Numbered from the stretch's first letter, positions 28,263-64,000 are shown. The stretch: 64,000 nucleotides of DNA from Dehalococcoidia bacterium (GCA_009692945.1 SHYD01000001.1:11898-75897); one strand, 5' to 3'. Numbers and translations: made by a program. Notes: generated by a model not told the origin, from the sequence alone.

Positions 28263-28407
28263 GAGGCGCTCCGCGAACTTCAGGTGGTCTATGGCATGAT
28301 CTTGGAGGAGTTCGCTGAGGAGGGCAGAGCGTTACGGCCCCATACTACCGTGACGGCCGGCGCCCGCGAGCAATTCACTCAGTTTCGATAACCGGAAAGG
28401 AAGCAGC

Positions 28408-31282: not shown

Positions 31283-31287
31283 CGGGT

Positions 31288-31515
31288 GAACGGCGCCGGC
31301 CGGGGCGGCAGCCCGCTGCCGGGGGAGTGGGGGTGGCCCCATAGGAGTGGGAACCTTTTCAGTGTGTGCCTGGGCGAGCTGTTCGAACACGGGGAGTGCA
31401 GAGGGGGCGAAGCCCCTGCTGCCGGGGTGTGGGGTGTCCCCACACACAAACGGCATGGGTGGGTGGGTGGGTGGGTGGGAGTGGCCCATACCCCCGAACC
31501 CCTGACACTGAATAG
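31288..31515. repeat. Intergenic repeat, copy E
   Basis: CGGGGCGGCAGCCCGCTGCCGGGGGAGTGGGGGTGGCCCCATAGGAGTGGG; GAGGGGGCGAAGCCCCTGCTGCCGGGGTGTGGGGTGTCCCCACACAC; (GGGT)5GGG; CCCCCGAACCCCTGACACTGAAT end. Confidence 0.8.
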
Positions 31516-31598
31516 AAACGCACCGGCCCTCTGGTTGTCAGGAATCGGGATTCCTGCCTATAATACCCACATCCCCTCCCGCGAGACTGGGGATCCTT

Positions 31599-32111: not shown

Positions 32112-32147
32112 GCAGCAACCAGGAAACAACGAAGGGAACATGATCCA

Positions 32148-32354
32148 ATGGGTGCACTCCCAAAACGCAAAATAAGCAGCCGCCGGGGCGGCAACCGCCG
32201 CAGCCAATGGCACGCCGTGGTGGCTCAACTGGTGAATTGCCAACGGTGCAGCGCTCCTCACCCATCACACCACGCGTGCCCCCGTTGCGGGTACTACAAG
32301 GGCAGGACGGCCATCGAAATCCCCATGCCGGAAGAACCGGGTGCCACGGGCTAG
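32148..32354 (+). CDS. rpmF: 50S ribosomal protein L32
   Basis: MGALPKRKISSRRGGNRRSQWHA.. and zinc ribbon CQRC...CPRCGYYKG. Confidence 0.88.
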   Translation: MGALPKRKISSRRGGNRRSQWHAVVAQLVNCQRCSAPHPSHHACPRCGYYKGRTAIEIPMPEEPGATG

Positions 32355-32369
32355 GACAGCGCGGCTTTC

Positions 32370-33296: not shown

Positions 33297-33299
33297 CTA

Positions 33300-33791
33300 T
33301 TGCGAGGTCATAACACCAACATGGCAGGCGCCCGCCAAAAAGCCCGCATTCTTGCATTGCAAGCCCTGTATGAGGCCGACACGGCTCACCACAGTCCGGC
33401 GGCGGCGATAGAACGTCTCCTCTTGGAGACCAAGCTCGCAGCGGAAGCGCAGTCGTTCGCCCGAGCGCTGGTGGAGGGCGTCACCCGTGAGCGGGAGCCC
33501 ATCGACGCGGCGATTCGGACGGCGGCCCCGTTATGGCCCCTTGAGCAGGTCGCCGTCGTAGACCGCAATATCCTTCGCATAGCCATCCAGGAGATCCTTT
33601 TTTCAGAGGGGAGTGCGGGGCAAAACCCCCTGCCGGTCGAGGTGGTCATCAACGAAGCGGTTGAATTGGGCAAGCTATTCGGGGCAGAAAACTCAGCACG
33701 GTTTATCAATGGCGTGTTGGGAGCCATCAACAGCCGGAGGTCAGGAGAACTGGCCGCAATAGTCGTAGAGAAGAGTCAGAGCAAATCTTAG
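33300..33791 (+). CDS. nusB: Transcription antitermination factor NusB
   Basis: ARQKARILALQALYEAD.. and ..VINEAVELGKLFGAENSARFINGVLG... The probable start is MAGARQ (33321). Confidence 0.85.
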   Translation: MRGHNTNMAGARQKARILALQALYEADTAHHSPAAAIERLLLETKLAAEAQSFARALVEGVTREREPIDAAIRTAAPLWPLEQVAVVDRNILRIAIQEILFSEGSAGQNPLPVEVVINEAVELGKLFGAENSARFINGVLGAINSRRSGELAAIVVEKSQSKS

Positions 33792-42959: not shown

Positions 42960-43270
42960 ACCGTGAGAATTCACTGTTGAGGGGGTGCATGGCTCAGGAG
43001 TGGGAGTGCACAGCAGCCCCTCTGCCGGGGGAGCGGGGGCGCCCCTCACAGAGAATTCTCCTCTTTTTTCCTGGGGTGGAGGGAGTGGCTCATATCCCCC
43101 GAACCCCCGACACTGCTGTGAAAAGGCGGTGGCTCACCAGGAACAGCATCTCCTCCAGGGGTGTCCAGCGGGTCTCCCGCTGGCGGGGAGTGTGAGGGGT
43201 GTACCCTCACACTCCATCTCTTTGTTTCTCCTCCGGCAGGGAGGGGGCCAAGGGGGGCGTCCCGTCCGCC
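42960..43270. repeat. Intergenic repeat, copy F
   Basis: GTGAGAATTCACTGTTGAGGGGG terminus; GGCTCAGGAGTGGGAGTGCACAGCAGCCCCTCTGCCGGGGG; GAGAATTCTCCTCTTTTTTCCTGGGGTGGAGGGAGTGGCTCATATCCCCCGAACCCCCGACACTG; a G8 run near 43275. The 3-prime boundary is uncertain. Confidence 0.75.
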
Positions 43271-48336: not shown

Positions 48337-48665
48337 CCGCTACGGAAGTAAGAGTTCACTGTTGAGGGGCGGCCGGGCTCAGGAGTGGGAGTGCACGAGG
48401 GCGGCAGCCCTCTGCCGGGGGCGTGGGGGCGCCCCCATAGGAGTGGGCAGGTTTCTCCTCGGACAACCTCGAAGGCTGTACTTCCCACCCACCCACCCAC
48501 CCATTTCGTTTGTGTGTGGGGACACCCCACACCCCGGCAGAAGGGGCGCGCCCCCCCTCTGAACACCCCGTCCTGAGGCCTCCATCCAGGCATAAACTCA
48601 ATCGGCGCCCGCTCCTATGGGGACACCCCCAAGCACCCCCGGCACAGGGCCGCCGCTCTGCACAC
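48337..48665. repeat. Intergenic repeat, copy G (long form)
   Basis: GTAAGAGTTCACTGTTGAGGGGCGG terminus; CGGGCTCAGGAGTGGGAGTGCACGAGGGCGGCAGCCCTCTGCCGGGGGCGTGGGGGCGCCCCCATAGGAGTGGGCA; (CCCA)5; GTGTGGGGACACCCCACACCCCGGCAGAAGGGGCGCGCCCCCCCTCTG; CCTATGGGGACACCCCCAAGCACCCCCGGCACAGGGCCG. Confidence 0.85.
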
Positions 48666-48699
48666 CCGCTCCCCGGATCTTCCCCGGATCGGGCGCTGA

Positions 48700-48728
48700 T
48701 TGACACGTCCTGGGTGCGATGCTAGTGT
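48700..48728 (+). promoter_or_regulatory. Putative sigma70 promoter for the chrB-domain gene (TTGACA-N17-TAGTGT)
   Basis: attgacacgtcctgggtgcgatgctagtgtg, about 70 nt upstream of the ATG at 48797. Confidence 0.45.
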
Positions 48729-48796
48729 GGGCCTCGCCTCGTCCGGTGTCAGACGAGGCGTCGCCACGAATGTTATGCCAACAAGGAGACCTCGCC

Positions 48797-49330
48797 ATGA
48801 AGTGGGTCACAAGAGACCGGGTGCATCTCGACCGCGTCGCCTGTCCGTGGCTGATCAAGCGGTTTGTGGACAAAGATGCGGAGTTCGTGTTCGTCGCCTG
48901 GGGAAAAGAGGATGAACGGCCTGCCGACGCCGTCCCCTATGCGCTGCCCGGCGTCGAACTCAGTCCCCACGACGACGCCGGCTCGACCTTCGATAAGATC
49001 ATGCGCAAGTACAACCTGAAAGACCCTGCGCTCGATATCCTCGCGCAGGTGGTGAACTCGGGCATCCATCAGTCGCTGCATCATGGCCACAAAGATGAGT
49101 TCGACGTGCCTCGGATCGAAGGCGTCGGCCTTGGGGCGCTGTCCGAAGGGATCATGCTGATCACGAGAGACGACCACGACAACCTCGACAAGAGCTTCCT
49201 GATGTACGACGCCATGTACGCCTACTGCCGCAGCGTCGTCATTCAGCACAACGACCCGTCCCTCAAAGAGATGAAGCTGCTGGACCGCAGCGCTGAAATC
49301 AAGAAACGGATGCAGGCTGCGCCCAAGTAG
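48797..49330 (+). CDS. ChrB C-terminal-domain protein (chromate-resistance-associated, rhodanese-like fold family)
   Basis: MKWVTRDRVHLDRVACPWLIKRFVDKDAEFVFV.. matches the conserved start of Chrom_resist/ChrB_C-domain proteins. 177 aa. The six-frame start at 48719 is inside the repeat/promoter region. Confidence 0.6.
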   Translation: MKWVTRDRVHLDRVACPWLIKRFVDKDAEFVFVAWGKEDERPADAVPYALPGVELSPHDDAGSTFDKIMRKYNLKDPALDILAQVVNSGIHQSLHHGHKDEFDVPRIEGVGLGALSEGIMLITRDDHDNLDKSFLMYDAMYAYCRSVVIQHNDPSLKEMKLLDRSAEIKKRMQAAPK

Positions 49331-49334
49331 GTAT

Positions 49335-49468
49335 TGGGAGCCGCGTGTTGGGGGACACCCCCACTCCCCCGGCAGAGGGCTGCCGCCCTCATGCACTCCC
49401 GCTCCTGAGCCCGATAGCGCCTCAATTGTGAACTCCTACCGTGCATGCACTCCCACTTCTGAGCCCGG
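49335..49468. repeat. Intergenic repeat, copy H (short)
   Basis: GGGGGACACCCCCACTCCCCCGGCAGAGGGCTGCCGCCCTCATGCACTCCCGCTCCTGAGCCCGATAGCGCCTCAATTGTGAACTCCTACCG, followed by a partial second module (..GCACTCCCACTTCTGAGCCCGGC). Confidence 0.8.
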
Positions 49469-49553: not shown

Positions 49554-50327
49554 TTGAGGATCCTCGTAATCGGAGATATTGTCGGCCGGCCAGGCCGGCG
49601 CGCCGTTGTGGATCTGCTCCCAGGCATGCGGCAGAAACACCGTCCCGAACTGGTGATTGCGAACGGTGAGAACGCCGCCCACGGACGGGGTATCACCCCA
49701 CGGAACGTGCAGGAACTGGTGGGGGCAGGGGTGGACGTGGTGACCTCCGGTAACCATGTGTGGGACCAGAAAGAGATCATCCCCTACATGGAGGCCAGCG
49801 TTCCGCTGCTCCGTCCCATCAACTACCCCAGTGGCGCTCCGGGCCAGGGGTATCTGATGCAGAGTGGTGTGCTGGTGGTGAACCTGATGGGCCGCACCCA
49901 CATGTACAACGTGGAGTGCCCTTTCCGGACCATGGACCGCCTGCTGGCCGAACTGCCCTCGCCTCCCAAGACCATCATCGTGGACTTCCACTGTGAGGCG
50001 ACCTCGGAGAAGGTGGCCATGGGTTGGTACCTGGACGGCCGCGTCAGCGCCGTGGTGGGAACCCACACCCACGTGCCCACCGCCGACGCCCGTGTCCTCC
50101 CAAAAGGCACTGCCTATATCAGCGATATCGGTATGACGGGCCCGACCTGCTCCATCATCGGCAACGAGATCAGCGCTGTGATCAACCGGTTTCTCACCCA
50201 GATGCCGGGCCCGCTGCCGGTGGCCGAAGGCCCGGCGGTGTTGAGCGCCGTCCTGGTAGAGGTGGACGACATCACCGGGCGGGCCCTCAAGATCAAACGG
50301 GTGGACGAATACGAAGGAGACCTGTAG
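49554..50327 (+). CDS. ymdB: YmdB-like metallophosphoesterase (TIGR00282 family; 2',3'-cyclic-nucleotide phosphodiesterase-like)
   Basis: (TTG) RILVIGDIVGRPGRRAV..ELVIANGENAAHGRGIT..VTSGNHVWD..; ..DFHCEATSEK..; ..GTHTHVPTAD... 257 aa. Confidence 0.8.
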   Translation: MRILVIGDIVGRPGRRAVVDLLPGMRQKHRPELVIANGENAAHGRGITPRNVQELVGAGVDVVTSGNHVWDQKEIIPYMEASVPLLRPINYPSGAPGQGYLMQSGVLVVNLMGRTHMYNVECPFRTMDRLLAELPSPPKTIIVDFHCEATSEKVAMGWYLDGRVSAVVGTHTHVPTADARVLPKGTAYISDIGMTGPTCSIIGNEISAVINRFLTQMPGPLPVAEGPAVLSAVLVEVDDITGRALKIKRVDEYEGDL

Positions 50328-50332
50328 CCTCC

Positions 50333-51166
50333 ATGCACCTCGACCTGCACATGCACACCACGGCCTCCGATGGGCGGCTCAGTCCGAGCCAACTCATCGA
50401 CCTGGCCGCGACCAGGGACCTCAACATCATCGCGGTCACCGACCACGACACCACCGAGGGCCTGGCCGAAGCCTACCAGCGCAAAGAGCGGTACCCACAA
50501 CTCACCATCATCCCCGGCATCGAACTGAGCACCGACATCCCCGGCAGTGAGGTCCACGTCCTCGGTTATTTCATCGACTGCGCCAACGCCGAGTTCCAAG
50601 AATTGCTGACGGAGTTCCGGGCCACCCGGGTGGACCGCGGCCTGATGATGGTGCAGAAGCTGCGGGAACTCGGGGTCATGATCGAGTGGGAGCGGGTCCA
50701 GGAACTGGCTCAGGGCGCCGTGGGCCGGCCCCATGTGGCCCAGGCGATGCTGGAGGGCGGCTACATCGGCACTATCAACGAGGCCTTCGACCGCTATATC
50801 GGGCGCAACGGCCCCGCGTATGCCGAGCGGGCAAAGCTGACGCCCGCCGAAGCGGTCACCACCATCCGGCGCGTCGGCGGAGTGGCCGTGCTGGCCCATC
50901 CCAGGGACGTGCTGGCGAACCTCGACCCCATCCTCGATGAGATGTGCGCCGCGGGGCTCACCGGGATGGAGGTCTATTACAACGGCTATGCCGGGGACCT
51001 GGCCGGCTACCTGAGCACGGTCTGCCGCGACCGGTCGCTGATCCCGTGTGGAGGCTCCGATTTCCACGGCATCGACGGCAAGTCTGAGGCCGGCCTTGGG
51101 CGCGTCGATGTCCCGATGACCACCGCCGAGCGGCTGTACGCCGCGGCCGGCAGGGAAATGCCCTAG
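50333..51166 (+). CDS. PHP-domain phosphoesterase (TrpH/YciV-like)
   Basis: [43 protein letters not shown]..; AGGAGA RBS. 277 aa. The six-frame ORF from 50024 is a spurious upstream extension overlapping ymdB. Confidence 0.8.
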
Positions 51167-51174
51167 CAACCAAC

Positions 51175-51621
51175 ATGGTCCTCAACGCTCAGGAAATCCA
51201 GAAGATCATCCCCCACCGCTGGCCCTTCCTGCTGGTCGATAAGATACTCGAGTTGGAACCCGGCAAGAGCGCCGTCGGGCTGAAACAGGTATCCGCGGGC
51301 GAAATCTACTTCCAGGGCCACTTCCCGGGACAACCCATCATGCCGGGGGTGCTGATCGTCGAAGCGCTGGCCCAGGTTGGGTCGGTGGCCCTCCTGAGCA
51401 GCCCCGAGCACCGCGGCAAGATCGGACTGTTCGCCGGGATCGACCGCTTCCGATTCCGCCGTCCGGTGGTCCCCGGCGACACCCTCCGCTTGGAAGTCAC
51501 CCTCACCAAGCTCCGCGGCGCGGTTGGCAAGGGGACCGGCAGGGCAGAGGTGGACGGACAGGTGGTGGCGGAAGGGGAACTGCTCTTCGCCATCGCCTCG
51601 CCCCAGAACCTCGGGACCTAG
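51175..51621 (+). CDS. fabZ: 3-hydroxyacyl-ACP dehydratase
   Basis: ..[41 protein letters not shown].. hot-dog fold, FabZ signature. 148 aa. Confidence 0.92.
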
Positions 51622-51639
51622 GGCCGGGGACCCGATCCC

Positions 51640-52770
51640 GTGGAGCGGCTTAGGGAATGGGTCATCACCCTCGTCTGTTTGGTCCTCCGGTGGCTCTTCA
51701 CCCTCATAATCCCTCCCCACCCCGGTTCAACTCCCCAAAAGATCCTGGTCATCAAGCCCTGCTGTCTGGGCGACACCCTCATGGCGACTCCAACGCTCGC
51801 CGCGCTCCGTGCAGAATGGCCGGACGCCACCATCGTGGTCGCCACGAGCAACTGGGCCCGGCCCGCAATCGAGAACCACCCGGCCATCGACTCCTTCATT
51901 GACTGCGCTCCTACGCCCCAAGGTGGGGCTGGACCGCTCCTGGAGACTTGGCGGCTGGCCCAGCGGGTCCGGAGGGGGGATTTCGATCTGGCGGTTGTAC
52001 TCGACCGGTCTCCCGTGGTCAGCCTCATCCCGTTTCTTGCCGGGATCCCCTCCCGCTCAGGGATCGACAGCGCTGGACGCGGGTTCTCCCTCACCAAGCG
52101 GGTGCCGGCATTACCGCTGAGACACGAGGCCGACCTCTACCTCGACGTCGCCCGCGCGGCGGGGTGCCACCCCGACGCAGCGGCCCTAACCTTTTTCCCC
52201 ACCGGCGAAGACCGGGCGTGGGCGGCAGACGCCCTGCCCAAGGGCGAGTGGGTTGCGGTCCACCCGGCCGGCGGGGTGAACCCGGGGAGTGCACTGCCCG
52301 GCAAGCGCTGGCCCTCCCACGGCTTCAGGGCGCTGGCCGAGCGCCTGCTGGACCGGGGGTACGGGGTGGTGCTGTTGGGCGGACCGGGTGACTACCCGTT
52401 CACTCAGGAGATCGCCGCGCTCTTACCGGCCCATGTCCGCACCCACGTTTACGACTTCGCGGGACGTTCCACTTTTGGGCAGACGGCGGCGTTGCTTGAA
52501 CGCTGCCGTTTGCTCGTGGGGAACGACACCGGCGTGATGCACCTCGCCGTCGCCGTGGCCACCCCCGTTGTCGCCGTGTTCGGACCCTCCAAACCGCTGG
52601 TCTACGGACCGTACCATTCCTCACAATCCCTCGTGGTGCACCACGAGGACCAATGCGGCCACTGCCTCTTCCGCGGCGGGCTTGTCACCGACTGCCGGAA
52701 CCAGTTCGCCTGCATGGGCGCCGCATCCGTGGACGAGGTGACCGCCGCCGCGCAAGCGCTGATGCGCTAG
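51640..52770 (+). CDS. Glycosyltransferase family 9 (heptosyltransferase-like), copy 1
   Basis: ..KILVIKPCCLGDTLMATPTLAALR..; ..GNDTGVMHLAVAVATPVVAVFGPS... 376 aa. Confidence 0.8.
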   Translation: MERLREWVITLVCLVLRWLFTLIIPPHPGSTPQKILVIKPCCLGDTLMATPTLAALRAEWPDATIVVATSNWARPAIENHPAIDSFIDCAPTPQGGAGPLLETWRLAQRVRRGDFDLAVVLDRSPVVSLIPFLAGIPSRSGIDSAGRGFSLTKRVPALPLRHEADLYLDVARAAGCHPDAAALTFFPTGEDRAWAADALPKGEWVAVHPAGGVNPGSALPGKRWPSHGFRALAERLLDRGYGVVLLGGPGDYPFTQEIAALLPAHVRTHVYDFAGRSTFGQTAALLERCRLLVGNDTGVMHLAVAVATPVVAVFGPSKPLVYGPYHSSQSLVVHHEDQCGHCLFRGGLVTDCRNQFACMGAASVDEVTAAAQALMR

Positions 52771-52794
52771 GCCAGCGGCGCAGCACAACAACTC

Positions 52795-52990
52795 GCCGCA
52801 CACACAAGAGTTCACTCTTGAGTGAACGCGGCAGGGTTGCCACACAGACAAACGAACGCGGTGGAAACTTCTCGCAGAGCTCGAAGAGTATCGATGCGGT
52901 GCGCGCGGCGGCTCGTTACTGTTCGAGCGAAGCGAGAATCTACGCCGCCCCGACTGTGATCCATTCGAATGTGAACTCTTACGCTAAGGC
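52795..52990. repeat. Intergenic repeat, copy I (divergent interior, recognisable termini)
   Basis: Left end AAGAGTTCACTCTTGAGTGAAC, right end GAATGTGAACTCTTACG. Interior lacks the canonical G/C modules. Confidence 0.5.
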
Positions 52991-53017
52991 CCCACGCCGC
53001 CCTGCCGATAGTAGCTG

Positions 53018-54624
53018 GTGCAGGATCGAAATCGATCGCCAGCGCCCGGAGGGAACGTGGGATTACTCCGCACACTCAAGCAGTCCAAACTGGTGCTCCC
53101 CTACACGATTATCAGCGTCTGCCTGATTGCCGTGATGGCAGCCGCCATTCAATGGAATTCGAACAGCGCCGTCGAGCATTCGGTGGTCAAGTTGGCCGAA
53201 GCCACCACTGCGATGCAGGTCGCCCAGTTCAACCTGCAGCTGGCCATGGACCCCGCATTCGCAGACGGAGGGAACGATGGCGAGCTCACCGCGGCCGACC
53301 TAGCCAACGTCGAAGTCTTGGGCCGCATCATTCCCCGCATGACGTACGGGCTCGGCATCGTCCAGATCAACATCTTCTCCACCGGCGGGCGGACCCTGTA
53401 CAGCTCCGACGGCGCCATGCTAGGCCAACAGAGGGGTACCAGCGGCGGTTTTCAGCGCGCCCTGCAAGGCCAAGTATCGACTGCCTTGGAACGGGGAGCG
53501 GCCGCTACCGATGATCGCCGTGAAGGCGAGGGCGGCGACATCGTGGAGTTGTACCTGCCGCTCTACCGCAACCCTCTGTCCACAGAAGGGGGTCGAGCGA
53601 TGGTTGGGGGGTGTTGGGACTCTTTCAAGATGTCCACGACAAGGTCGCTCTCATCGAGCAGTCCAGCTCAGAGCAGTTGGCGCCAACCGTCGCCATGATA
53701 GCCGCATTAATGACCACGCTCTTGGCCTTTACGATCCGGGGTGAACGGATGATCGTACGCTCCAGCGCGCGTGAAGAGCGGGCGGAAGGGGAAGCCCGAA
53801 TGCTGGAAACCGTCCAAGACCACAACCGGCACCTGGAGATCATGAACTGGGAACTGGAACAGCGCACCGTTCAAGCGGAGCAGGCATCAAAAGCAAAATC
53901 TGAATTCCTGGCCAACATGTCCCACGAGTTGCGGACCCCGCTCAACGGCATCATCGGTTTCGCCGACGTGCTGCTGGCCGAGATGTTGGGGCCGCTGAAC
54001 GAGGACCAGACCGACGGCGCCAAAGAGATCAAGGATAGCGGAAGGCACCTCCTCAAACTGATCAGCGATGTGCTCGACATCGCCAAGATCGAAGCCGGCA
54101 AAATGACCGTCGACATGGTGGCCTGCGACCTCGGCAACACACTGGCGGAGGCCGCCCGTACGGTCGCACCGATGGCCGAGACCAAGGCGATGATCCTCCA
54201 ATTCACCATTGCTGAAGGCCTGCCACAAGCCCTTGGGGACCCGTTGCGGATCAAACAGGTGCTGCTCAATCTGTTGAGCAACGCCGTGAAATTCACGGGT
54301 CCCGAGGGCTCGATCTCGGTGGAGGTTTCCTACAGGCCCGGCGAAATCCTGGTTACGGTGGCCGACAATGGCCCCGGCATCCCCGAAGAGATGCAGGCAC
54401 GCCTCTTCCAAAAGTTCGAACGGGTGGAGAAGCGCAACCCCGGTCAATTGAATGAAGGCACCGGGCTGGGCCTGGCCCTGGCGCGGGAACTGGTCCACCT
54501 CCAGGGAGGTCACCTCTGGTACACCACCCAAGTGGGGGCGGGCAGCACGTTCTATTTCACGCTGGCCGCCGCAGAGGCGCAATCGCACACGGGTACTAGG
54601 ACACTGCTGGCAGTGGGAGGCTGA
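53018..54624 (+). pseudogene. Sensor histidine kinase (periplasmic sensor, 2 TM, HisKA + HATPase_c), frameshifted
   Basis: Two overlapping ORFs in different frames (53018-53698 and 53611-54624). Sensor with TM1 LVLPYTIISVCLIAVMAAAI. Kinase part ..[14 protein letters not shown].. (H box), N/G1/G2 boxes (..LLSNAVKFT.., ..DNGPGIP.., ..GTGLGLA..). The frames join if one G is added to the G6 run at 53606-53611 (..EGGRAMVGG|[14 protein letters not shown]..). Confidence 0.8.
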
Positions 54625-54626
54625 GC

Positions 54627-55040
54627 ATGGAAGCGAATGCCGGATACGGTCATGGACCTGGGGCCGGGAACCCCACCATCCTGGTGGTGGAGGACAATCC
54701 TCGCAACATGAAATTGATGAGAATCATGTTGCAGGCCAAAGGTTAGGCAACAATTGAGGCGGTCGATGGCGAAAACGGCCTCACCCTGCTGGGGCAGTCG
54801 TCCTGCACCCTCGTGGTGCTGGATATCCAGCTTCCGGGGATGTCCGGACTCGACGTGGCGCGTGCAGTGCGCGCCAACGAGACCACCAGGACCATTCCGA
54901 TCCTGGCGGTCACCGCCTTCGCTATGGTGTCTGAGCGGGAAGCTGCTTTGTCCGCCGGGGGCTCGGAGTACATGACCAAACCGATCGACATGCCCCGGTT
55001 TCTTGAAACGGTGCAGGAGATGATCGGGGCGGGAGCCTGA
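54627..55040 (+). pseudogene. Single-domain response regulator (CheY-like receiver) interrupted by an in-frame TAG
   Basis: MEANAGYGHGPGAGNPTILVVEDNPRNMKLMRIMLQAKG-TAG-ATIEAVDGENGLTLLGQSSCTLVVLDIQLPGMSGLDVAR...YMTKPID.. is a complete receiver domain (phospho-Asp in VVLDIQLPGMSG). The TAG at 54744-54746 replaces the conserved aromatic residue of the KG[YF] motif. TAG is used as a genuine stop by at least 8 genes in this window. Confidence 0.75.
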
Positions 55041-55042
55041 CC

Positions 55043-56809
55043 ATGCCGGCCGCCGCACGTCACCTGAACCAACCCGCGCCCGCGCCGATGAGCGAGCTGT
55101 TCGCCCGGGATCGGAACCTGGCAGCGCTGATTCATGGGTTCTCCGACCTCACGGTGGTCATCGCCGAGGACGGCAGCGTGCGCTATGCAAGCCACGGTCT
55201 CGAAAAGCACCTTGGCCGCCGGCCAGATGCATTCTTGGGCGCCGATTTCTTCTCATTGTTTCACCCGGAGGACGAACCGCTCGCACGCGTTGTGGTGCTC
55301 GAACCAAGCAGCGATGCCGAAGACCGGTTGATCATGGCGTCCCGCCTCCAGCACGCAGGCGGCGCATGGCGGTTTATGGAACTGGCCAGCGCCAACCTGC
55401 TGGATGACCCGAACCTCGAAGGGCTCGTGGTCAACCTGTGGGACGTCACGGAGCGCAAAGAGTATGAAGGGCGCCTCGAGCGGATGGCTTACTCGGACAC
55501 CCTCACGGGACTGCCTAACCGGGCCAGGTTCGCCACCGTCCTGCAGCGTGCCTGTGATCGCACTGCACGGACCGGCCGCGGCATGGCGGTGATGTTCATA
55601 GACCTGGACCGGTTCAAGATCGTCAACGACACGCTGGGACACCAGGCTGGCGATGAGGTGCTGAAGGAAGCGGCAGCCCGATTGCGGCAATCGGCGCCAC
55701 CAGAGGCCCTGGTGGCGCGCTACAGCGGCGACGAGTTCGCCATCATCCTGGAACAGACGAACACCAACGTTGACCCCCGTGAGGTGGCCGCAGCGATATT
55801 GCGTCGCATCGTCGCCCCTATCGACCTCGGCGTCGCCGAGGCCCACATCGGCGCCAGCATCGGGGTCGCCCACAGCGGTCCAGGGCTGCTGCAGCCGCGC
55901 GACCTGCTGCGCGCGGCGGACACGGCGGCCTACCGGGCCAAGGCCCAGGGCCGGGGGCAACTCGTGGAGTACGACGCGGCTATCGATGCGCTCCCGATGG
56001 AACGCATCCAACAAGAGGCCGAACTGCGCCGAGCGGTCGAAGGCTTTGAGTTCTCGATACATCTTGAGCCCATCTTTGAACTGTGCGGCAACGGCCCGGT
56101 GGCCGTGGATGCCACCGCTTGGTGGAACCACCCTACCAAAGGCCTGCTGGCGCCGCCCACGTTCAGGCCGCTGCTGGAAGAGATCGGTCTGACCGCAGAG
56201 GTGGACCTGGAAACGCTGAGGCGGAGCGCGCTTACGTTCCAACGCTGGCGCAGCGTCGTTCCTGAAACCAGCCTGATGACGCTGACGACCCACGTCTCCC
56301 AACGCCTTTTCAACGAGCCGGACTTTGTTGAAAAGGTTCAGGAGATTCTGGCCACCTCCGGCCTGCCCCCAGCAGATTTGAGGCTGAGCATGGACCAAGC
56401 CGTGCTGGCGTTGAACCAGAACCAATGGGCTGACAAGGTGCTGACCCTGCGTTTGCTGGGCATCAAGTTGGCGTTGGAACAGTTCGGTTCCGGCGCCAGC
56501 CCGCTTGGCGGGTTGAAACACGCCCCCATCGACCAGGTCAGGGCGGATTCGACGCTCATCGAACGGCTCCCTCACGATTCATGGGATACCGCGTTCCTGG
56601 GGGCCATGGTTGCCGTAGCCGAGGCGCTGAGGATGGATGTGGTGGTGCAGGGTATCGCGGACGCCGGCCAACTGGCAGCCGTCATCGAGCAGGGGTGCCG
56701 CTTTGGCCAGGGCCCGTTCTGGGGCGGTGCCCTGGAATCCGAGGCAGCGCTCGAATGGATCCGCCGGAAACGGTACCGCCGCCCCTCCCGGAATTCGGAC
56801 CACCGCTAA
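55043..56809 (+). CDS. PAS-GGDEF-EAL signalling protein with degenerate catalytic motifs
   Basis: PAS-like N-terminus. GGDEF domain with ..RYSGDEF.. (SGDEF instead of GG[DE]EF). EAL domain where the signature is ..VDATAWWNHP (DAT instead of EAL) but downstream boxes are present (..LEQFGSG.., ..VVQGIADAGQ..). 588 aa. Starts 2 nt after the receiver stop. Confidence 0.8.
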   Translation: MPAAARHLNQPAPAPMSELFARDRNLAALIHGFSDLTVVIAEDGSVRYASHGLEKHLGRRPDAFLGADFFSLFHPEDEPLARVVVLEPSSDAEDRLIMASRLQHAGGAWRFMELASANLLDDPNLEGLVVNLWDVTERKEYEGRLERMAYSDTLTGLPNRARFATVLQRACDRTARTGRGMAVMFIDLDRFKIVNDTLGHQAGDEVLKEAAARLRQSAPPEALVARYSGDEFAIILEQTNTNVDPREVAAAILRRIVAPIDLGVAEAHIGASIGVAHSGPGLLQPRDLLRAADTAAYRAKAQGRGQLVEYDAAIDALPMERIQQEAELRRAVEGFEFSIHLEPIFELCGNGPVAVDATAWWNHPTKGLLAPPTFRPLLEEIGLTAEVDLETLRRSALTFQRWRSVVPETSLMTLTTHVSQRLFNEPDFVEKVQEILATSGLPPADLRLSMDQAVLALNQNQWADKVLTLRLLGIKLALEQFGSGASPLGGLKHAPIDQVRADSTLIERLPHDSWDTAFLGAMVAVAEALRMDVVVQGIADAGQLAAVIEQGCRFGQGPFWGGALESEAALEWIRRKRYRRPSRNSDHR

Positions 56810-57062
56810 CGGGCCGACCCAAGCTCGGGAGTGGGAGTGCACGAGGGCGGCGGCCCTCTGCCGGGGGAGTGGGGGTGCCCCCATAGGAGTGGGCACCTTT
56901 TGAATTCGTGCTGGATGTGGATTCCAGGACGGGGGGGGGTATGCAGAGGGGGCGCAGCCCCTTCTGCCGGGGCGTGGGGTGTCCCCCACAAAGAATTCTC
57001 CTCTTTTTCTGGGGTGGGGGCGTGGCTCACACCGCCTGATCCCCTAACACTGAATCGATACA
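56800..57062. repeat. Intergenic repeat, copy J
   Basis: CTCGGGAGTGGGAGTGCACGAGGGCGGCGGCCCTCTGCCGGGGGAGTGGGGGTGCCCCCATAGGAGTGGGCACC; G9 run; GCAGAGGGGGCGCAGCCCCTTCTGCCGGGGCGTGGGGTGTCCCCCACAAAGAATTCTCCTCTTTTTCTGGGGTGGGGGCGTGGCTCACACCGCCTGATCCCCTAACACTGAATCG. Confidence 0.85.
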
Positions 57063-57077
57063 CCTGGTGCCCCGCCC

Positions 57078-58286
57078 TTGTCCCGGCCTCCCGGCGATGC
57101 TAGGATCACCGCAATGGGTGCTCCCGGCCGCCTGGGCATAAAACAGCGACTTCGCGGCGCCGGCCTCGGCCTGGCACTGACATCCCGACTCCAAAAAATA
57201 GCGCCCCCCGGGAAACCACTGGACCGCATCTTGGTGCTCCGCCCCGATCACCTCGGCGACCTCCTCCTCAGCACGCCGGCCTTGCGCCTGCTCAGAACAA
57301 CGGTTCCCGACGCCCAGATCACGTTGCTAACCGGGCCCTGGAACGCCGAAGCCGCCCACCATATCACCTCGGTCGACGAGGTAGTGACCGTCGATTTTCC
57401 CTGGTTCGACCGGCGACCGCATGCCCTCCCCTGGAACCCCTATCTCGTTATGCGGCAGGCGGCCGCCGCCTTGCGGGGTCACCAGTTCGACGCCGCAATC
57501 ATCCTGCGGCACGACTTCTGGTACGGCGCGGCACTGGCAGCGGCGGCGGGAATCCCCCTCCGCGCCGGGTACGACCTCCCGGAGTCGTCGCCTTTTCTGA
57601 CCGTACCGGTGCCGTTCCAAGGGGAGCGGCACGAGGCGACCCAAGCGTTCGAGTTGGTGCGCGCCGCATTTGCGCCGTCAAGCGGCGCTTCTCCCGGCCA
57701 CGCCGAGTTCGACACGACACCGCAAGAACAGGCCGAAGCCGGCCGGTGGCTCAGCGAGAATGCAGCCTCCGAACCGATCGTGGCCGTGCATCCAGGAGCG
57801 GGCGCCGCCGTGAAGCTGTGGGGTGCAGAACCCTTCGGGGAGGTGGTGCGCGCGCTGCGAGACCAGTACCGGGCAACCGTGGTGTTGACCGGTGGGAACA
57901 CCGAGCGCCCGTTGGTGGAGCAGATCGCATCGCAGGCCGGCGGCCCGGTTCCCATGCTCGTCGACGCCCCTCTGGGGGTGCTGGCCGCCGTGCTGGAGCG
58001 CAGCGCCCTCGCCGTTGGGGTCGACTCCGGCATCATGCATGTGGCTGCCGCGGTGGGCACACCCACCGTCCGGCTGTTCGGCCCCGTCAGCGCCGGCCGC
58101 TTCGGACCGTGGGGTGACCCGGAGCGGCATCGAATGGTGCGGGCCGAGCTTCCCTGCGTCCCCTGCGGCCGCCTCGATTTCCCCGAACACGAACTCCGGT
58201 TCCACCCGTGTGTGCGCTCAATCCGCGCCGGCCAGGTGCTGGAGGCGATCTCCTCCCTGCTGCCGGCGACAGCGAGGGTACAGTAG
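57078..58286 (+). CDS. Glycosyltransferase family 9 (heptosyltransferase-like), copy 2
   Basis: ..RILVLRPDHLGDLLLSTPALRLLR..; ..GVDSGIMHVAAAVGTPTVRLFGP... The N-terminal 40 aa are uncertain. Confidence 0.75.
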   Translation: MSRPPGDARITAMGAPGRLGIKQRLRGAGLGLALTSRLQKIAPPGKPLDRILVLRPDHLGDLLLSTPALRLLRTTVPDAQITLLTGPWNAEAAHHITSVDEVVTVDFPWFDRRPHALPWNPYLVMRQAAAALRGHQFDAAIILRHDFWYGAALAAAAGIPLRAGYDLPESSPFLTVPVPFQGERHEATQAFELVRAAFAPSSGASPGHAEFDTTPQEQAEAGRWLSENAASEPIVAVHPGAGAAVKLWGAEPFGEVVRALRDQYRATVVLTGGNTERPLVEQIASQAGGPVPMLVDAPLGVLAAVLERSALAVGVDSGIMHVAAAVGTPTVRLFGPVSAGRFGPWGDPERHRMVRAELPCVPCGRLDFPEHELRFHPCVRSIRAGQVLEAISSLLPATARVQ

Positions 58287-58288
58287 CC

Positions 58289-59419
58289 GTGCTCATCGGA
58301 ATCGATGCCAGCCGCGCGGTGGCGGACCAGCCAACCGGGACCGAGCACTACTCTCGGGAACTGATACGCCATATCCTGGCGGTAGCCGCGGGGCAACCGA
58401 ATGACCGCGCGTTCGTGCTCTACACCGCGCGCCAGCCCGGACCCGGCCTGATTCCGAAAGAGTCGCCGGCCGAACTGCGCGTGATGCCCTTCCCGCGGCT
58501 GTGGACCCACTTTCGCCTTTCCTTGGAGATGCTACGGAACCGGCCCGACGTGCTCCTGGTGCCGGCCCACGTCATCCCTTTGGTCCACCCCAAGATCAGC
58601 GTCGCCACGATCCACGACCTCGGCCACATCTATTACCCCGAGGCCTATCCAAGAGCCACGCTGAAGTACCTCTCCTGGTCCACGCGGCACAACATCAACA
58701 CCGCGGCCCACCTCCTCTCGGACTCAGAAGCGACCAAGCGCGATATCATCAAGCACTTCGGGGTCGCGGGGAAACGGATCACCGTGGTTTACCCGGGGGT
58801 GTCGCCGCGGTTCGGGCCGGAATATCCTCCGGCCGACCTCGCCGCGGTGAAAGCCGCGTACGGCATCGACGGACCCTACGTGCTTTACGTCGGCACGCTG
58901 CAGCCCCGAAAAAACGTCGAACGGCTCATCGAAGCCTTCGCCATGGCCAAGCGGGCCGCCGGGTTTTCGGAACGCCTGGTGCTGGCGGGGCGCATGGGGT
59001 GGATGCCCGAGGGGATCATGCGCCGCCTGGCGCAAATGGGCGAAGCGGTAACCCTGGCAGGCTACGTCCCGGAGACCGATCTGGGACCGCTGTACGCCGG
59101 AGCCACGGCCTTCGTGCTGCCGTCACTGTTCGAGGGTTTCGGCATGCCGGTCATCGAAGCGATGGCCTCGGGGACACCGGTCATCGCGGCCAACGCAGCA
59201 TCGCTCCCCGAGGTTTGCGACGACGCCGCGTTGCTGTTCGACCCCCACCAGACCGAGGAACTCGCGGAAGCCCTGTCACAGGTGTGCAGCGACCCCGGTC
59301 TCAGGGCGAAGTTACGAGCGCGCGGGTTCGAACAGGCCCGGCGCTTCACCTGGCGGGAGGCCGCCGCAAGGACACTGGACGTGCTCGATAGGGTGGCTCC
59401 GCCGGTGGGGGTCAGGTGA
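58289..59419 (+). CDS. Glycosyltransferase family 4 (GT-B, RfaG/WcaL-like)
   Basis: (GTG) LIGIDASRAVADQPTGTEHYS..; ..LPSLFEGFGMPVIEAMASGTPVIA.. EX7E-type motif. The six-frame start at 58208 overlaps the previous gene. Confidence 0.8.
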   Translation: MLIGIDASRAVADQPTGTEHYSRELIRHILAVAAGQPNDRAFVLYTARQPGPGLIPKESPAELRVMPFPRLWTHFRLSLEMLRNRPDVLLVPAHVIPLVHPKISVATIHDLGHIYYPEAYPRATLKYLSWSTRHNINTAAHLLSDSEATKRDIIKHFGVAGKRITVVYPGVSPRFGPEYPPADLAAVKAAYGIDGPYVLYVGTLQPRKNVERLIEAFAMAKRAAGFSERLVLAGRMGWMPEGIMRRLAQMGEAVTLAGYVPETDLGPLYAGATAFVLPSLFEGFGMPVIEAMASGTPVIAANAASLPEVCDDAALLFDPHQTEELAEALSQVCSDPGLRAKLRARGFEQARRFTWREAAARTLDVLDRVAPPVGVR

Positions 59420-60528
59420 AGCGGATCCTGGTGGTCAAGCTGGCTGACGTGGGCGACGTGCTGACGGCAACCCCCGCGTTGAGGGGGCTGCGCCGAACCT
59501 TCCCGTCCTCGGAGATCACCGCCCTCGTCTCCCCGCACTGCCGGGACGTATTGGATGGGAACCGCTCAGTCGACCGGCTGCTGCTCTTCGACAAACACCT
59601 CTTCGAAACCCGGGGCGGGTTGGGGACGCCGCGGGCGGCCGCCGCCATGGCCACCCTGGCGCTGACGCTGCGCCGCGCCCGCTTCGATTCGGTGGTGCTG
59701 CTGCACCACCTGACCACGCCGCTCGGGGCCGCCAAATACGCCGGACTCTGCCTGGCTGCGGACGCTCCGGTGCGGGCAGGACTCGACAACGGCCGGGGGG
59801 GCTTTCTGACCCACCGCGCCCCAGACCACGGGTTTGGCGCCCGCCACGAGGTGGAATATTGGAACGATGTGACCGGGCTGTTGGGCGCAGCCCCGGACTG
59901 CGGTCCCCTCGAGTTCCCGGTCTCGCCGGGAGACAGCGCCAACGCAGCAACCCTGCTCGACGGCATCCCTGGACCGTTGGTCGCGATCCACCCCGGCGCC
60001 GGGGCGTTCAGTCTCGCCCGCCGCTGGCCGCTCGATCGATTTGCGCGCGTCGTCGCGGCCATCACCACCAAACTTAATGCCTCGGTGGTGCTGGTGGGCG
60101 GCCGGGAAGAGGCCGGACTCGGGGCGGCGCTGGCCGAGGCCGGACAAGCCGGGCGCATCCGGGACCTGACCGCCCGGACGACGCTGGGCCAACTCGGTGG
60201 CGTCCTGGCCCGGTGCAGCCTGTTCGTGGGAAACGATAGCGGGGTGATGCACCTCGCCGCCGCGGTGGGCGCCCGCGTCCTCGCGCTGTTCGGCCCGTCC
60301 AATCACCGGGCATGGGGTCCTTGGACACCGAACAATCCGTCCATCGTCATCCGGTCGGGCATCCCGTGCAGCCCGTGCCTTTACCGGGGCCATTCCGTGG
60401 GCACACCTGAAGGCTGTCCCATCCGTCCATGCCTCAGCATGATCACACCAGAGCAGGTGGTCGACACCATTGAACAACTCCTTGCCGCCGGAACTCAGCC
60501 TGCGGTTATTAGGGATCCGGATCGATAA
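59416..60528 (+). CDS. Glycosyltransferase family 9 (heptosyltransferase-like), copy 3
   Basis: MKRILVVKLADVGDVLTATPALRGLR..; ..GNDSGVMHLAAAVGARVLALFGPS... 370 aa. Start overlaps the GT4 stop. Confidence 0.8.
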   Translation: MKRILVVKLADVGDVLTATPALRGLRRTFPSSEITALVSPHCRDVLDGNRSVDRLLLFDKHLFETRGGLGTPRAAAAMATLALTLRRARFDSVVLLHHLTTPLGAAKYAGLCLAADAPVRAGLDNGRGGFLTHRAPDHGFGARHEVEYWNDVTGLLGAAPDCGPLEFPVSPGDSANAATLLDGIPGPLVAIHPGAGAFSLARRWPLDRFARVVAAITTKLNASVVLVGGREEAGLGAALAEAGQAGRIRDLTARTTLGQLGGVLARCSLFVGNDSGVMHLAAAVGARVLALFGPSNHRAWGPWTPNNPSIVIRSGIPCSPCLYRGHSVGTPEGCPIRPCLSMITPEQVVDTIEQLLAAGTQPAVIRDPDR

Positions 60529-61228
60529 CCTGCCACGAGAACGGGCGCTGGCCCGGCTGGCAGCCTTTGCCGCTTCCGGAAAACCCCACCATATCGTCAC
60601 CGTGAACCCGGAATTCTTGATCCAGGCACAGGAAACCTCGGAGTTCGCGGGGGTGCTCAACGGAGCTGACCTTGCGCTGGCCGACGGCGCCGGGTTGGCG
60701 CTGGGGGCGCGGGTGTTGGGCCGTCGGCTGGCAGATCGCGTGCCTGGAGTCGACCTGATAGACCAACTCGCTGCCCATGCCGCCGCGGCGCATCAGAGCA
60801 TGTTCCTGCTGGGGGCGGCCCCGGGGGTGGCGGACGCCGCAGCCGCCGTGTTGATCTTGCGTCACTCAGGGCTCATCATCGCCGGCGCCTGGGCCGGTTC
60901 CCCAAGTGCTGCGGAGGAAAACGAAATCGTCGGAAGGATCGTGGCCGCCCGGCCACACTACCTCTTCGTCGCCTTCGGGTCGCCGCAGCAGGACCTGTGG
61001 ATCCACCGCAACCTGCACCGGCTTCAGGTCCCGGTCTGCATGGGCGTGGGCGGAGCGTTCGACTTCCTCAGCGGTCGCGTGCCGCGGGCGCCCCGCTGGA
61101 TGCGCTCGGCCGGGTTGGAGTGGGCCTACCGCTTGGGCCGTGAACCGTGGCGGTGGCGCCGCATGTTGCGGCTGCCCCGCTTCCTCTTCCTGGTGGTGCG
61201 GCAGCGCATCGAGGGGCCGGCGGCATGA
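60470..61228 (+). CDS. WecB/TagA/CpsF-family glycosyltransferase (GT26)
   Basis: ..HIVTVNPEFLIQAQET..; ..HYLFVAFGSPQQDLWI..; ..GVGGAFDFLSGRVPRAP.WM... The start is uncertain (overlaps the previous gene by ~60 nt if 60470 is used). Confidence 0.75.
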   Translation: MNNSLPPELSLRLLGIRIDNLPRERALARLAAFAASGKPHHIVTVNPEFLIQAQETSEFAGVLNGADLALADGAGLALGARVLGRRLADRVPGVDLIDQLAAHAAAAHQSMFLLGAAPGVADAAAAVLILRHSGLIIAGAWAGSPSAAEENEIVGRIVAARPHYLFVAFGSPQQDLWIHRNLHRLQVPVCMGVGGAFDFLSGRVPRAPRWMRSAGLEWAYRLGREPWRWRRMLRLPRFLFLVVRQRIEGPAA

Positions 61229-61368: not shown

Positions 61369-62641
61369 TTAGGCCCGGGCCTCCGCCAGGATGTCCCAGG
61401 TTGCCTGGGTGGCCTCGATCTTGGCTGAGTCGGCGCTGTAGCCGGCCTCGCCGGGGATGTAGCGAACCGGGCGCTTCTTCCCGCCAACCTTCACCGCCTC
61501 GACAGGGAGCCGGATCGGGACCGACGGATCCCGGAAGACGTTTATCGGATCGAGTCCGCTTTGCAGGCGGTCCAGTTGCTGCTTCAGCTGGCGGCGGAAC
61601 AGAATGATACCTTTGTCCGATTCGCCCAGCTTCTCCCGGTGGCGCTCGGCAATCGGCCCCTGCTGCGCCCATGCCATGTAGTCCTGATTGAAGGTGTAGG
61701 CCACATTCCAATCGCCCTCTTCGTTGTACAGCGGCACGTACCAGAACGGGACCGACTCCTGCGCCGCCGCCTGGGTTCCGGGCGCCGCACGGAAGGTGTA
61801 CAGCGAGACGTGGAAGGTGCGTTCGTCGTCGATGGGAACCCTGAATTGAAGGGTTGAAATGAACCGGTCGCCGACCAGAAGGATGTTGGGGAACAGCACC
61901 GGGTGGCCCGTCTTCCAGTCCTCAGCCTCCTCGGTGAACCCCTCGATGACGCGCCGCTTGATGATGCCGTACTCAAAAACGTCGAACCCGATCTTCTGGT
62001 GGTTGCGAAGTTTGCCGATCCGCGGCGACTGATCCACCCCACCTTGGACCCGCTCGACGTATTCGCCGTAGTACGAGTGGAGCCACTCGGCGTGGACCGG
62101 GTCCAGCGAGTTCTCCTGGCACTGGAGCCAATTGCACGGCAACGCGGCGATCGCGATGTCTCTGACCACGTTGTCCCACATCAGGGGTTCCCCGGCCGGG
62201 AGCAGTGGCGCGGGCTGCGGCCCCAGGTAGGCGAACACCAATCCGGCCCGCTCCTCCACCAAGTAGGCCGCCACGCCGCACTTCTCCTTGAACCGCCCGT
62301 CGGGATGGACGGTCTCCTCGAAGGGCTGCTCAGTGCAGGCGCCGGTGTGGTCGAACTTCCAGCCGTGATACTGGCACCGCAGGCCGTCCTCTTCCACCAC
62401 GCCGTAGGCCATGTTCACCCCGGCGGTGAGGGCACCAACGATCAATCAGGCCCAATCTCCCGCTTCGATCGCGGTAGAGCACCAGGTCTTCGCCCAAGAT
62501 CCGCACCTCTTTGGTGCGGAAGGGGCTGGCGTCCACCTCACCGCAGGCCGCCACCGGGTGCCAGTAGCGCCGCATCAACGCCCCGATCGGCGTGCCCGGC
62601 CCGACTCTGGTGAGGAGTTCGTTCTCTTGCTTGTTGAGCAT
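61369..62641 (-). pseudogene. Rieske non-heme iron oxygenase paralog, frameshifted
   Basis: The N-terminal frame (62641-62330) reads MLNKQENELLTRVGPGTPIGALMRRYWHPVAA..LYRDRSGRLGLIDRWCPHRR, then junk. The second frame (62445-61369) continues ..VNMAYGVVEEDGLRCQYHGWKFD..LDPVHAEWLH... Compared with the intact paralog (CSHRRVNLAYGVV), there is one extra G in the G4 run at 62418-62421. Confidence 0.75.
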
Positions 62642-62827: not shown

Positions 62828-64000
62828 TCAGGGAGTCCCGCTACCCACCTTATCCCAGGTCGCGTAAGTGGCTTCGATCTGGGGGGCGTCGACACTGTAG
62901 CCGGACTCGCCCGGGACATAGGCCTGCGGACGTCCGCTGATGCCCCGCTTCACCTTTTCCAGCGGCAGCGCGATCATCCGGTTCTTCTCTGGATCACGGA
63001 AGGTGTTCATGGGGTCGCGCCCCGCCAGCACCGCATCGAGTTGCTGGCGCAGCAACCGGCGATAGAGGATGATCCCCTTGTCCCCCTCGCCCAGTTTCTC
63101 GCGATGCCGCTCGGCGATGGGGCCCTGTTGCGACCACGCCATGTAGTCCTGGTTGAAGGTGTAATCGACCACCCAACTCCCAGACTCATCGAACAACGTT
63201 ACCCAACGAACCGGGACGCTGGTCTGAGCCGGAGCCTCCGTTCCGGGCGCCGGCCGGAAGATGTATTGGGAGACATGCAGGGTATGGGTGTCGTCGATGG
63301 GGACCCGGAACTGCATGGTGGCCTGGAACTGGTCGCCCACCAGCAGGATGTGAGGGAAGAGGATGGGGTGCCCGTGGGCCCAGTCCTCATCCTCCTCGGT
63401 CCCGCCCTCCTGAACCCTCCGTTTGATGATCCCGTAGTCGAACACATCGAACCCGATCTTCTGGTGACGCCGGCCGATCCTCGGGAGTTGGTTGGGGGCT
63501 GGTTCAGTCCCGCGGCCGGGCAGCGTCCTCACATAAGAGCCAAAGTAGCCATGCAGCCACTCGGAATGGGTGGGGTCGACCGAGTTCTCCTGGCACTGCA
63601 GCCAGTTGCACGGCAGTTCGGTCACGGCGATGTCGCGCACCACATTGTCCCAAGCCAGCGGTTCCCAGCGGGGCAGCAGCGGCACCGGCTGGGGACCCAT
63701 ATAGGCGAAGATGAGGCCTGCCAACTCCTGTACCTGGTAGCCGGCGACGCCGCACTTCTCCTTGAACCGGCCATCGGGGTGAACCGTTTCTTCGAAGGGT
63801 TGCTCGATGCACGTACCGGCCTGGTCGAATTTCCAGCCGTGATACTGGCACCGCAGGCCATCCTCCTCCACCACGCCGTACGCCAAATTGACGCGGCGGT
63901 GCGAGCACCACCGGTCGATCAGGCCGAGGCGCCCGGAGCGGTCCCGGTACAGCACCAGGTCCTCGCCCATGAGCCGGACCTCTTTGGTGCGGAACGGGCT
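62828..64000 (-). CDS. Rieske non-heme iron oxygenase paralog (intact; N-terminus lies beyond the window end)
   Basis: ..SPFRTKEVRLMGEDLVLYRDRSGRLGLIDRWCSHRRVNLAYGVVEEDGLRCQYHGWKFD.. (Rieske CxH...CxxH). Fe site DPTHSEWLH. About 85% identical at protein level to the downstream pseudogene copy. The frame stays open to position 64000. Confidence 0.8.
   Translation of the reverse strand, partial: SPFRTKEVRLMGEDLVLYRDRSGRLGLIDRWCSHRRVNLAYGVVEEDGLRCQYHGWKFDQAGTCIEQPFEETVHPDGRFKEKCGVAGYQVQELAGLIFAYMGPQPVPLLPRWEPLAWDNVVRDIAVTELPCNWLQCQENSVDPTHSEWLHGYFGSYVRTLPGRGTEPAPNQLPRIGRRHQKIGFDVFDYGIIKRRVQEGGTEEDEDWAHGHPILFPHILLVGDQFQATMQFRVPIDDTHTLHVSQYIFRPAPGTEAPAQTSVPVRWVTLFDESGSWVVDYTFNQDYMAWSQQGPIAERHREKLGEGDKGIILYRRLLRQQLDAVLAGRDPMNTFRDPEKNRMIALPLEKVKRGISGRPQAYVPGESGYSVDAPQIEATYATWDKVGSGTP

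Follow-up and report, generated by a model that had tools for sequence, protein, structure and literature searches.

Why does a signalling operon interrupt a cluster of glycosyltransferase genes, and in what state are its genes? The locus that raises this question lies in a 64,000-nucleotide stretch of DNA from a Dehalococcoidia bacterium (GCA_009692945.1 SHYD01000001.1:11898-75897), here called the window, where genes for a histidine kinase (HK), a receiver and a PAS-GGDEF-EAL protein stand between two family 9 glycosyltransferase genes, GT9a and GT9b. A preliminary description of the locus had proposed this gene content and order amid glycosyltransferase genes, which Pfam upholds, and had placed a kinase frameshift at a run of six G (G6, 53606-53611), an amber codon in the receiver (54744-54746) and divergent SGDEF and DAT motifs in the third gene, all of which are present at these sites. 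We consider it likely that a three-gene signalling operon was inserted here and that its two-component pair has since been inactivated; the open reading frame (ORF) of its third gene is intact. The features of the locus are listed below, with the evidence in brackets.

51640 to 52770, plus strand: GT9a, family 9 glycosyltransferase and upstream flank, with TAG as its stop codon (Pfam Glyco_transf_9, E=6e-39)
52771 to 57074, no strand assigned: inserted segment of 4304 bp, opposite the unrelated 90-bp spacer of the empty site in contig L016
52804 to 52982, no strand assigned: copy I, a 179-bp hairpin-forming element (motif search, BLASTN, fold)
53057 to 53698, plus strand: N-terminal fragment of the histidine kinase (translation)
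53606 to 53611, plus strand: G6 homopolymer, the frameshift site (translation, alignment of homologues)
53611 to 54624, plus strand: C-terminal part of the histidine kinase with the second transmembrane segment (TM2), HisKA and HATPase_c (Pfam HisKA 3e-22, HATPase_c 3e-30)
54627 to 55040, plus strand: stand-alone receiver, DivK/CheY-like, with the amber codon at 54744-54746 (Pfam 2e-23)
55043 to 56809, plus strand: PAS-GGDEF-EAL protein, ORF of 588 aa (Pfam, alignment to MorA 4rnh, conserved columns)
56811 to 57062, plus strand: copy J, member of a dispersed repeat family, with an alternative left bound at 56823 (BLASTN)
57075 to 58286, plus strand: conserved region upstream of GT9b together with GT9b, the downstream flank (L016 homology, Pfam)
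57078 or 57114 to 58286, plus strand: GT9b alone, with a probable start at the ATG at 57114 (Pfam)

The three signalling genes are separated by gaps of 2 nt and each has a good Shine-Dalgarno sequence; because of this tight packing and these sequences we regard them as one operon.

The insertion was identified from an empty site. A scan of metagenomes with GT9a as query returned contig L016 ('Hain-H14', ERZ1292645), a related locus with the gene order PHP, FabA-like, GT9a and then directly GT9b. Amino acid identities between the window and L016 are 95% for PHP, 92% for FabA-like, 76% for GT9a and 81% for GT9b, and the neighbouring genes are ~90% identical at the nucleotide level. In the nucleotide alignment, positions 3-2505 of L016 match window 50253-52752 and positions 2611-3559 match window 57075-58023. 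From the GT9a stop codon to the return of homology at 57075 there are 90 bp in L016 and 4304 bp in the window. GT9a also adjoins GT9b in three further, more distant contigs (L022, L023 and L028), and the GT9a homologues of the four contigs range from 76% down to 42-45% amino acid identity. The module is an insertion into a formerly contiguous GT9a-GT9b junction. Since the two genes are adjacent in L016 and in the three distant contigs, an insertion in the lineage of the window is much more parsimonious than clean deletions that happened several times. The preliminary description had proposed looking for GT9 directly followed by GT9, and this arrangement is found in all four contigs.

Neither of the two repeats nor the island is similar to the spacer of L016, which holds no solo or hybrid repeat and no remnant of the island. 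On alignment, this spacer also has no similarity to the residual window spacers 52771-52803 and 57063-57074. Upstream of GT9b, this empty-site spacer contains three TTGCCGGT copies within 44 bp (L016 2563-2606), a possible regulatory site that would have been lost or displaced in the window.

Among the classical signs of a genomic island, the absence from a close relative (L016) is found here, and an atypical composition, a tRNA site and an integrase are not. The GC content is 0.630 in the island and 0.637 in the window, and the GC content at third codon positions (GC3) is 0.75-0.78 in the island vs 0.79 +/- 0.06; the comparison of composition and codon usage with the flanks, proposed in the preliminary description, thus revealed no anomaly. 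A tRNA scan and Pfam scans of the 64-kb window detected no tRNA gene, integrase or transposase. An Rfam scan of the whole window at the gathering threshold was empty, and in the island a promoter and terminator scan yielded no signal above that of shuffled sequences. The best matches of the kinase core are other kinases of Chloroflexota and Dehalococcoidia. Given these matches and the ordinary composition, the operon probably came from a related organism or from a different locus of this genome. A scan of genome contigs with GT9a found only relatives of at most 47% identity, without synteny, and no contig was retrieved when the GGDEF-EAL protein, GT9b and the 309-aa kinase piece with its His were looked up by exact match.

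The glycosyltransferase cluster itself appears to be a recombining locus. Identity to L016 falls abruptly at the start of GT9a, where synonymous divergence (dS) reaches 0.84 (L016 1390-2520), roughly double the value of the neighbouring genes; it is 0.44 for GT9b and lies between 0.36 and 0.44 for PHP, FabA-like and GT9b. Judged from this divergence, GT9a was probably exchanged by recombination (allelic replacement) in one of the two lineages. The jump marks the cluster as a variable locus, so that an insertion at this place is unsurprising, and illegitimate or homologous recombination within it is as likely a means of insertion as repeat-mediated transposition.

The kinase gene is interrupted by a frameshift. 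Its N-terminal fragment has a GTG start, a GGAGG Shine-Dalgarno sequence, a first transmembrane segment and a sensor domain, for which no Pfam family was found even at E = 5, and it runs out of frame past the G run. Adding one G or removing two at the G6 run restores the reading '...RAMVG(G)VLGLFQDV...', and the repaired product can be aligned across the junction with homologues of full length (513-523 aa), which are encoded in continuous frames. The frameshift is therefore a loss of 1 nt or a gain of 2 nt in the G run just before TM2. Aligning the C-terminal part with intact homologues (P0002 and L034) showed that the H, N, G1, F and G2 boxes, including GTGLGLALA, are intact, with the His codon at 53923-53925. 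The gene thus has the HisKA domain with its phospho-accepting His and the HATPase_c boxes of this kinase class, and lacks a single continuous reading frame. At 53695-53698 the TGA that ends the N-terminal fragment overlaps, as ATGA, the ATG of a 309-aa ORF for the kinase core.

The receiver matches Pfam PF00072 (2e-23) over profile positions 1-110 of 111. Its fold is retained with the acidic E-D pair (VVEDNP), the phospho-accepting Asp (VLDIQLPG), the Thr (AVTAF) and the Lys (TKPI), and its ORF is interrupted at codon 40, where TAG (54744-54746) stands in place of Tyr. The homologue in contig L015 reads KGYTIAEAEDG, and the intact pairs of homologous histidine kinase (513-523 aa) and receiver that are present elsewhere in Chloroflexota have Tyr where the amber codon stands here. 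In a database of 5.8 billion proteins, no nearly identical kinase or receiver without an interruption was found. As each of the two genes has exactly one lesion and all catalytic motifs are intact in the window, the decay of both appears to be recent.

The same lesions are found in a second assembly. ERZ1305449, recorded separately in ENA, contains a 5976-bp contig with the same gene order and spacing, which encodes the exact 213-aa frameshifted N-terminal fragment including its out-of-frame tail, the 309-aa kinase piece and the 39-aa and 75-aa receiver pieces. The ENA kinase allele (P0001) reads MSRELRTP, with Arg for the phospho-accepting His, and this is the only difference to the window allele in 309 aa. 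The NCBI depositors of the metagenome-assembled genome (MAG) from which the window comes (locus tags EXR51_) likewise called the kinase and the receiver as fragments. In a third data set, contig L031 of Logan SRR8561390, GT9a is identical as well, and copy I is present with its first 87 bases, likewise identical. More than 30 other genes of the window have full-length Pfam matches, several of them containing G7 or C7 runs; examples with a G7 run are the glycosyltransferase gene GT9c and the gene for the large subunit of acetolactate synthase, both of which are intact. None of the ~30 other G/C runs of at least 6 nt in the window disrupts a gene checked by Pfam. With the ENA products replicating the lesions and the other run-bearing genes intact, we conclude that the lesions are real and specific to this operon. 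Reading them as decay, as the preliminary description had done for the kinase and the receiver, agrees with these data, and the additional His-to-Arg change of the ENA allele fits a continuing decay.

Two assembly breaks were observed at this locus. L031 ends inside copy I (window 52890), and the ENA contig ends just inside the start of the GGDEF-EAL gene (~window 55067). These breaks may be caused by repeat or hairpin problems, or by strain heterogeneity in the GGDEF-EAL gene.

The third gene is in a different state. It is an intact ORF of 588 codons, and its product is identical to NCBI MSQ26575.1, with a best overall identity of 38% to any known protein. Pfam detects GGDEF (2e-43) and EAL (1e-43), the latter over profile positions 2-234 of 236, so that the EAL fold is retained. 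For a comparison of conserved columns we used 38 homologues and counted columns that are at least 90% conserved. The GGDEF domain keeps 37 of its 38 conserved columns, among them D187, D189, K192, N195, D196, R226, D230, E231 and K300; the sole departure is G228S, which gives the motif RYSGDEF. The domain thus has the fold with the Mg- and GTP-binding residues and lacks the canonical GG(D/E)EF A-site. An RxxD I-site is absent from the protein. An SGDEF cyclase, ECA3270 of P. atrosepticum, is active (PMC3974145), and SGDEF is required for the function of MbaA of V. cholerae (PMC8079147); with these two precedents, the motif does not speak against cyclase activity.

The EAL domain departs from its homologues at 20 of 47 conserved columns, including every metal ligand and catalytic residue, and has DAT instead of EAL. 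The catalytic replacements are E356D, N417H, E449S, E452Q, D479E, D480Q, K500R, E536Q and E539A, and two substrate contacts are replaced as well (Q342E and R360W). The residues that a phosphodiesterase needs for catalysis and metal binding are therefore missing. By its conserved columns, this EAL domain is of an old non-catalytic type with a kept fold, and its divergence would not be recent damage. Motif divergence in this cyclic di-GMP (c-di-GMP) protein is old and probably functional. The preliminary description had stated that all three genes carry lesions. This does not hold for the third gene, and 'every gene degenerate' overstates the case by merging a fresh pseudogenisation of the phosphorelay with an old motif divergence in the output protein.

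We propose that an operon encoding a membrane sensor histidine kinase, a single-domain receiver and a PAS-GGDEF-EAL protein was inserted into a short GT9a-GT9b spacer in an uncultured Chloroflexota lineage. After the insertion, the kinase would have been hit by an indel in the G run and the receiver by a Tyr-to-amber substitution, one lesion each, and a sister population would additionally have lost the phospho-accepting His of the kinase. The phosphorelay would then no longer work, a loss of function that we infer from these lesions. The EAL domain would have been a non-catalytic scaffold long before the insertion, and the SGDEF cyclase domain, otherwise fully conserved, may still have a role as an orphan, be it as a cyclase or as an effector. 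The c-di-GMP gene could be expressed less because of polarity from the lesions upstream.

Several points weigh against this explanation. L016 is the sole close contig with the empty site, and it is short (3.6 kb). Because its spacer and those of the window do not align, the insertion point cannot be placed with single-base precision. The ordinary composition and codon usage of the island give no independent sign of a foreign origin. The lesions in the ENA assembly are read from exact protein products and gene coordinates, not from nucleotides, and we infer the independence of the MAG, ENA and Logan data from three separate records, a one-residue kinase difference and separate gene calls. Furthermore, to judge from the overlap at ATGA 53695-53698, a sensor-less kinase core of 309 aa might still arise by reinitiation at this site.

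The repeats next to the module belong to a dense mosaic family that resembles miniature inverted-repeat transposable elements (MITEs). In the 64 kb of the window there are at least 10 copies, 90-355 bp long; they are short, non-coding and multicopy with terminal inverted repeats, as MITEs are, and their interiors are rich in GC hairpins. The family termini are GTAAGAGTTCAC(T/A)(G/A)TTGAGGG and its complement, and modules are shuffled between the copies. The 12-mer terminal motif occurs 9 times in the window, where 1.5 occurrences are expected, a number reached by none of 100 shuffles. The copies in the window are at the following positions.

3848-4202
14923-15086
28032-28232
29441-29532
31281-31519
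42963-43115
48348-48673
49351-49439
52804-52982 (copy I)
56811-57062 (copy J)

Copy J is a clear family member. It matches about nine other window copies (BLASTN E down to 1e-60) and has the 3' inverted repeat at 57043-57062. On its other side, directly next to the stop codon of the GGDEF-EAL gene, the ~20 nt of the 5' inverted repeat are absent. Copy I resembles the family in its terminal inverted repeats alone, AAGAGTTCACTCTTGAG at the left end and GTGAACTCTTAC at the right end, and BLASTN found no similarity between its interior and any other copy. It folds as a long hairpin (z = -2.56), and the RNA fold of copy J is not better than shuffles (z = -1.3). The earlier placement of the module between two repeat copies therefore stands for copy J, and for copy I as far as the inverted repeats go. 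When four repeat copies were compared by BLASTN with 389 kb of loci from other Chloroflexota, L031, a contig of the same strain, gave the only match. Among the other copies, one layout resembles a composite transposon: the ChrB_C gene (48719-49330) lies between two inverted copies with their 5' termini outward (48348, plus strand, and 49439, minus strand). The longest homopolymers of the window, C11 at 13061-13071 (intergenic, beside a gene ending at 13074) and G9 at 56931-56939 (inside copy J), are potential slippage sites.

One could suppose that the block was mobilised as a composite, by a trans-acting transposase using the outer inverted repeats, which are at 52804 (left end of copy I) and at 57062 (right end of copy J). 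These outer ends are correctly inverted and match the family termini, the whole block of repeats plus cargo is absent from the empty site, where no solo repeat is found, and the layout around ChrB_C would be a second case. However, no target-site duplication was seen in the flanks of this block or of any other complete copy, gene scans of the window found no transposase, the two copies are internally unrelated, copy J is truncated at its 5' repeat, and the cargo was not found elsewhere in database searches. The family also occupies spacers within the ilvBNC-leuA cluster, and it brackets ilvC (28354-29409) and leuA (29720-31282) as well as the ChrB_C gene. Since core genes are bracketed too, bracketing by repeats is not in itself a sign of mobilisation, and with copies in ~10 intergenic spacers per 64 kb it is expected fairly often by chance. 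We regard composite mobilisation as unlikely. Of the earlier reading as a repeat-flanked insertion no longer under selection, the insertion and the decay of kinase and receiver are borne out, and the lesion of the third gene and the repeat-mediated means of insertion, which had been derived from the bracketing, are not.

A related reading would see the silencing as stepwise and selected: a sensor-less and deregulated kinase would have arisen, followed by the receiver amber codon and the His-to-Arg change as suppressors, and the block could, together with this or instead, have been delivered between MITE-like ends. We think this quite unlikely. If true, a MITE-like delivery would be the first example of MITE-mediated operon capture in Chloroflexota.

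The island could also be ancestral, with L016 and the other contigs having lost it by deletion. Deletion between flanking repeats is a common process, and there is only one close relative. Against this, GT9a adjoins GT9b in four contigs of very different distance from the window, and the L016 spacer has no repeat scar or remnant, so that several independent clean losses would be needed, which makes this history very unlikely.

A functional use of the interruptions, as recoding or phase variation, was also considered: a -1 ribosomal or transcriptional slip or a slipped-strand change at G6, together with amber readthrough. A -1 slip on GGG GGG would yield a product that aligns well with the homologues, homopolymer tracts can be contingency loci, and the ATGA overlap would let both halves be translated. 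However, U GGG GGG does not have the X XXY YYZ form of a slippery site, the homologues are encoded in one frame, so that the frameshift is not conserved, and no tract polymorphism was found, the G6 tract being short and in the same state in both assemblies that cover it. TAG is the normal stop codon of GT9a in both the window and L016, two different devices in adjacent genes are improbable, and the sister allele has no catalytic His. Regulation by readthrough or slippage, which the preliminary description had offered as an alternative to decay, is thus highly improbable. That the frameshift and the stop codon are sequencing or assembly errors can hardly be believed, although the source is metagenome-assembled and the frameshift lies in a homopolymer, because the identical frameshifted product and amber split recur in the ENA assembly with a consensus that differs at one residue, other G/C runs of at least 6 nt leave their Pfam-checked genes undisrupted, and a substitution creating TAG is not a typical artefact.

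Downstream of GT9b, Pfam annotates three further glycosyltransferase genes.

58208 to 59419: GT4
59416 to 60528: GT9c
60470 to 61228: GT26/WecG (WecG-type)

Beyond these, two tandem paralogous genes of Rieske/LigXa_C-type oxygenases are found on the minus strand at 61369-62445 and 62828-63970, with 71-81% nucleotide identity; for the first of them (61369-62445), taken from its listed start, the match to the Rieske profile is confined to the C-terminal part. Elsewhere in the window, the yceD, fabD-like and nusB genes (31599-33791) have a GC3 of 0.67-0.69, below the window mean of 0.79.

The inserted operon with its inactivated two-component pair would be a clean and dated case in which an uncultured Chloroflexota gained a signalling module and then lost part of it, with an identifiable empty site and with two population alleles that differ in how far the decay has gone. 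For annotators, this means that the split kinase and receiver genes of the MAG are real pseudogenes, and that 'degenerate' GGDEF and EAL motifs should not be counted as lesions beside frameshifts. The locus also marks the glycosyltransferase cluster as variable and recombining, in a genome with a dense lineage-specific MITE-like family. The current understanding of two-component and c-di-GMP signalling is unchanged.

As an instance of gene gain followed by decay, the case is ordinary though well documented. GGDEF/EAL pseudogenes have been reported in Yersinia pestis and Shigella. There as here, signalling genes are lost by a single frameshift or nonsense change next to intact neighbours, and partner genes fall together. 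The present case differs in that the decay follows a recent insertion in a free-living groundwater or freshwater Chloroflexota, with no host-restricted reduction, and that the phosphorelay half alone is broken.

Composite elements flanked by MITEs are known as well, for example the integron mobilization units and the TIME-COMP elements. In both, as at this locus, a cargo lies between two small non-autonomous elements with inverted repeats and is missing from the related empty site. Unlike in these elements, neither a target-site duplication nor a transposase was found here, the copies are internally unrelated and one is without an inverted repeat, and the same repeats also sit between core genes.

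The output protein shares the SGDEF A-site with MbaA (SGDEF/EVL) and ECA3270 (PMC8079147, PMC3974145), and like FimX, LapD, CsrD and YdiV, which have a degenerate EAL domain, it keeps the EAL fold without the catalytic residues. It differs from MbaA, whose EAL domain (EVL) is active, in that none of the metal ligands is retained, nor is the general-base Lys/Glu. Because these residues and the substrate contacts Q342 and R360 are all replaced, even a c-di-GMP binding in the style of FimX and LapD appears doubtful for this domain.

The two-component half is comparable to systems of a HisKA kinase and a DivK- or CheY-like receiver, in which a membrane kinase with HisKA and HATPase_c is followed by a translationally coupled stand-alone receiver; the closest homologues of the receiver are annotated as DivK-like by JGI. 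The homologous pairs of histidine kinase and response regulator found in other Chloroflexota are intact and are not followed by a GGDEF-EAL gene, whereas here both genes of the pair are interrupted and a GGDEF-EAL gene with an intact ORF follows them.

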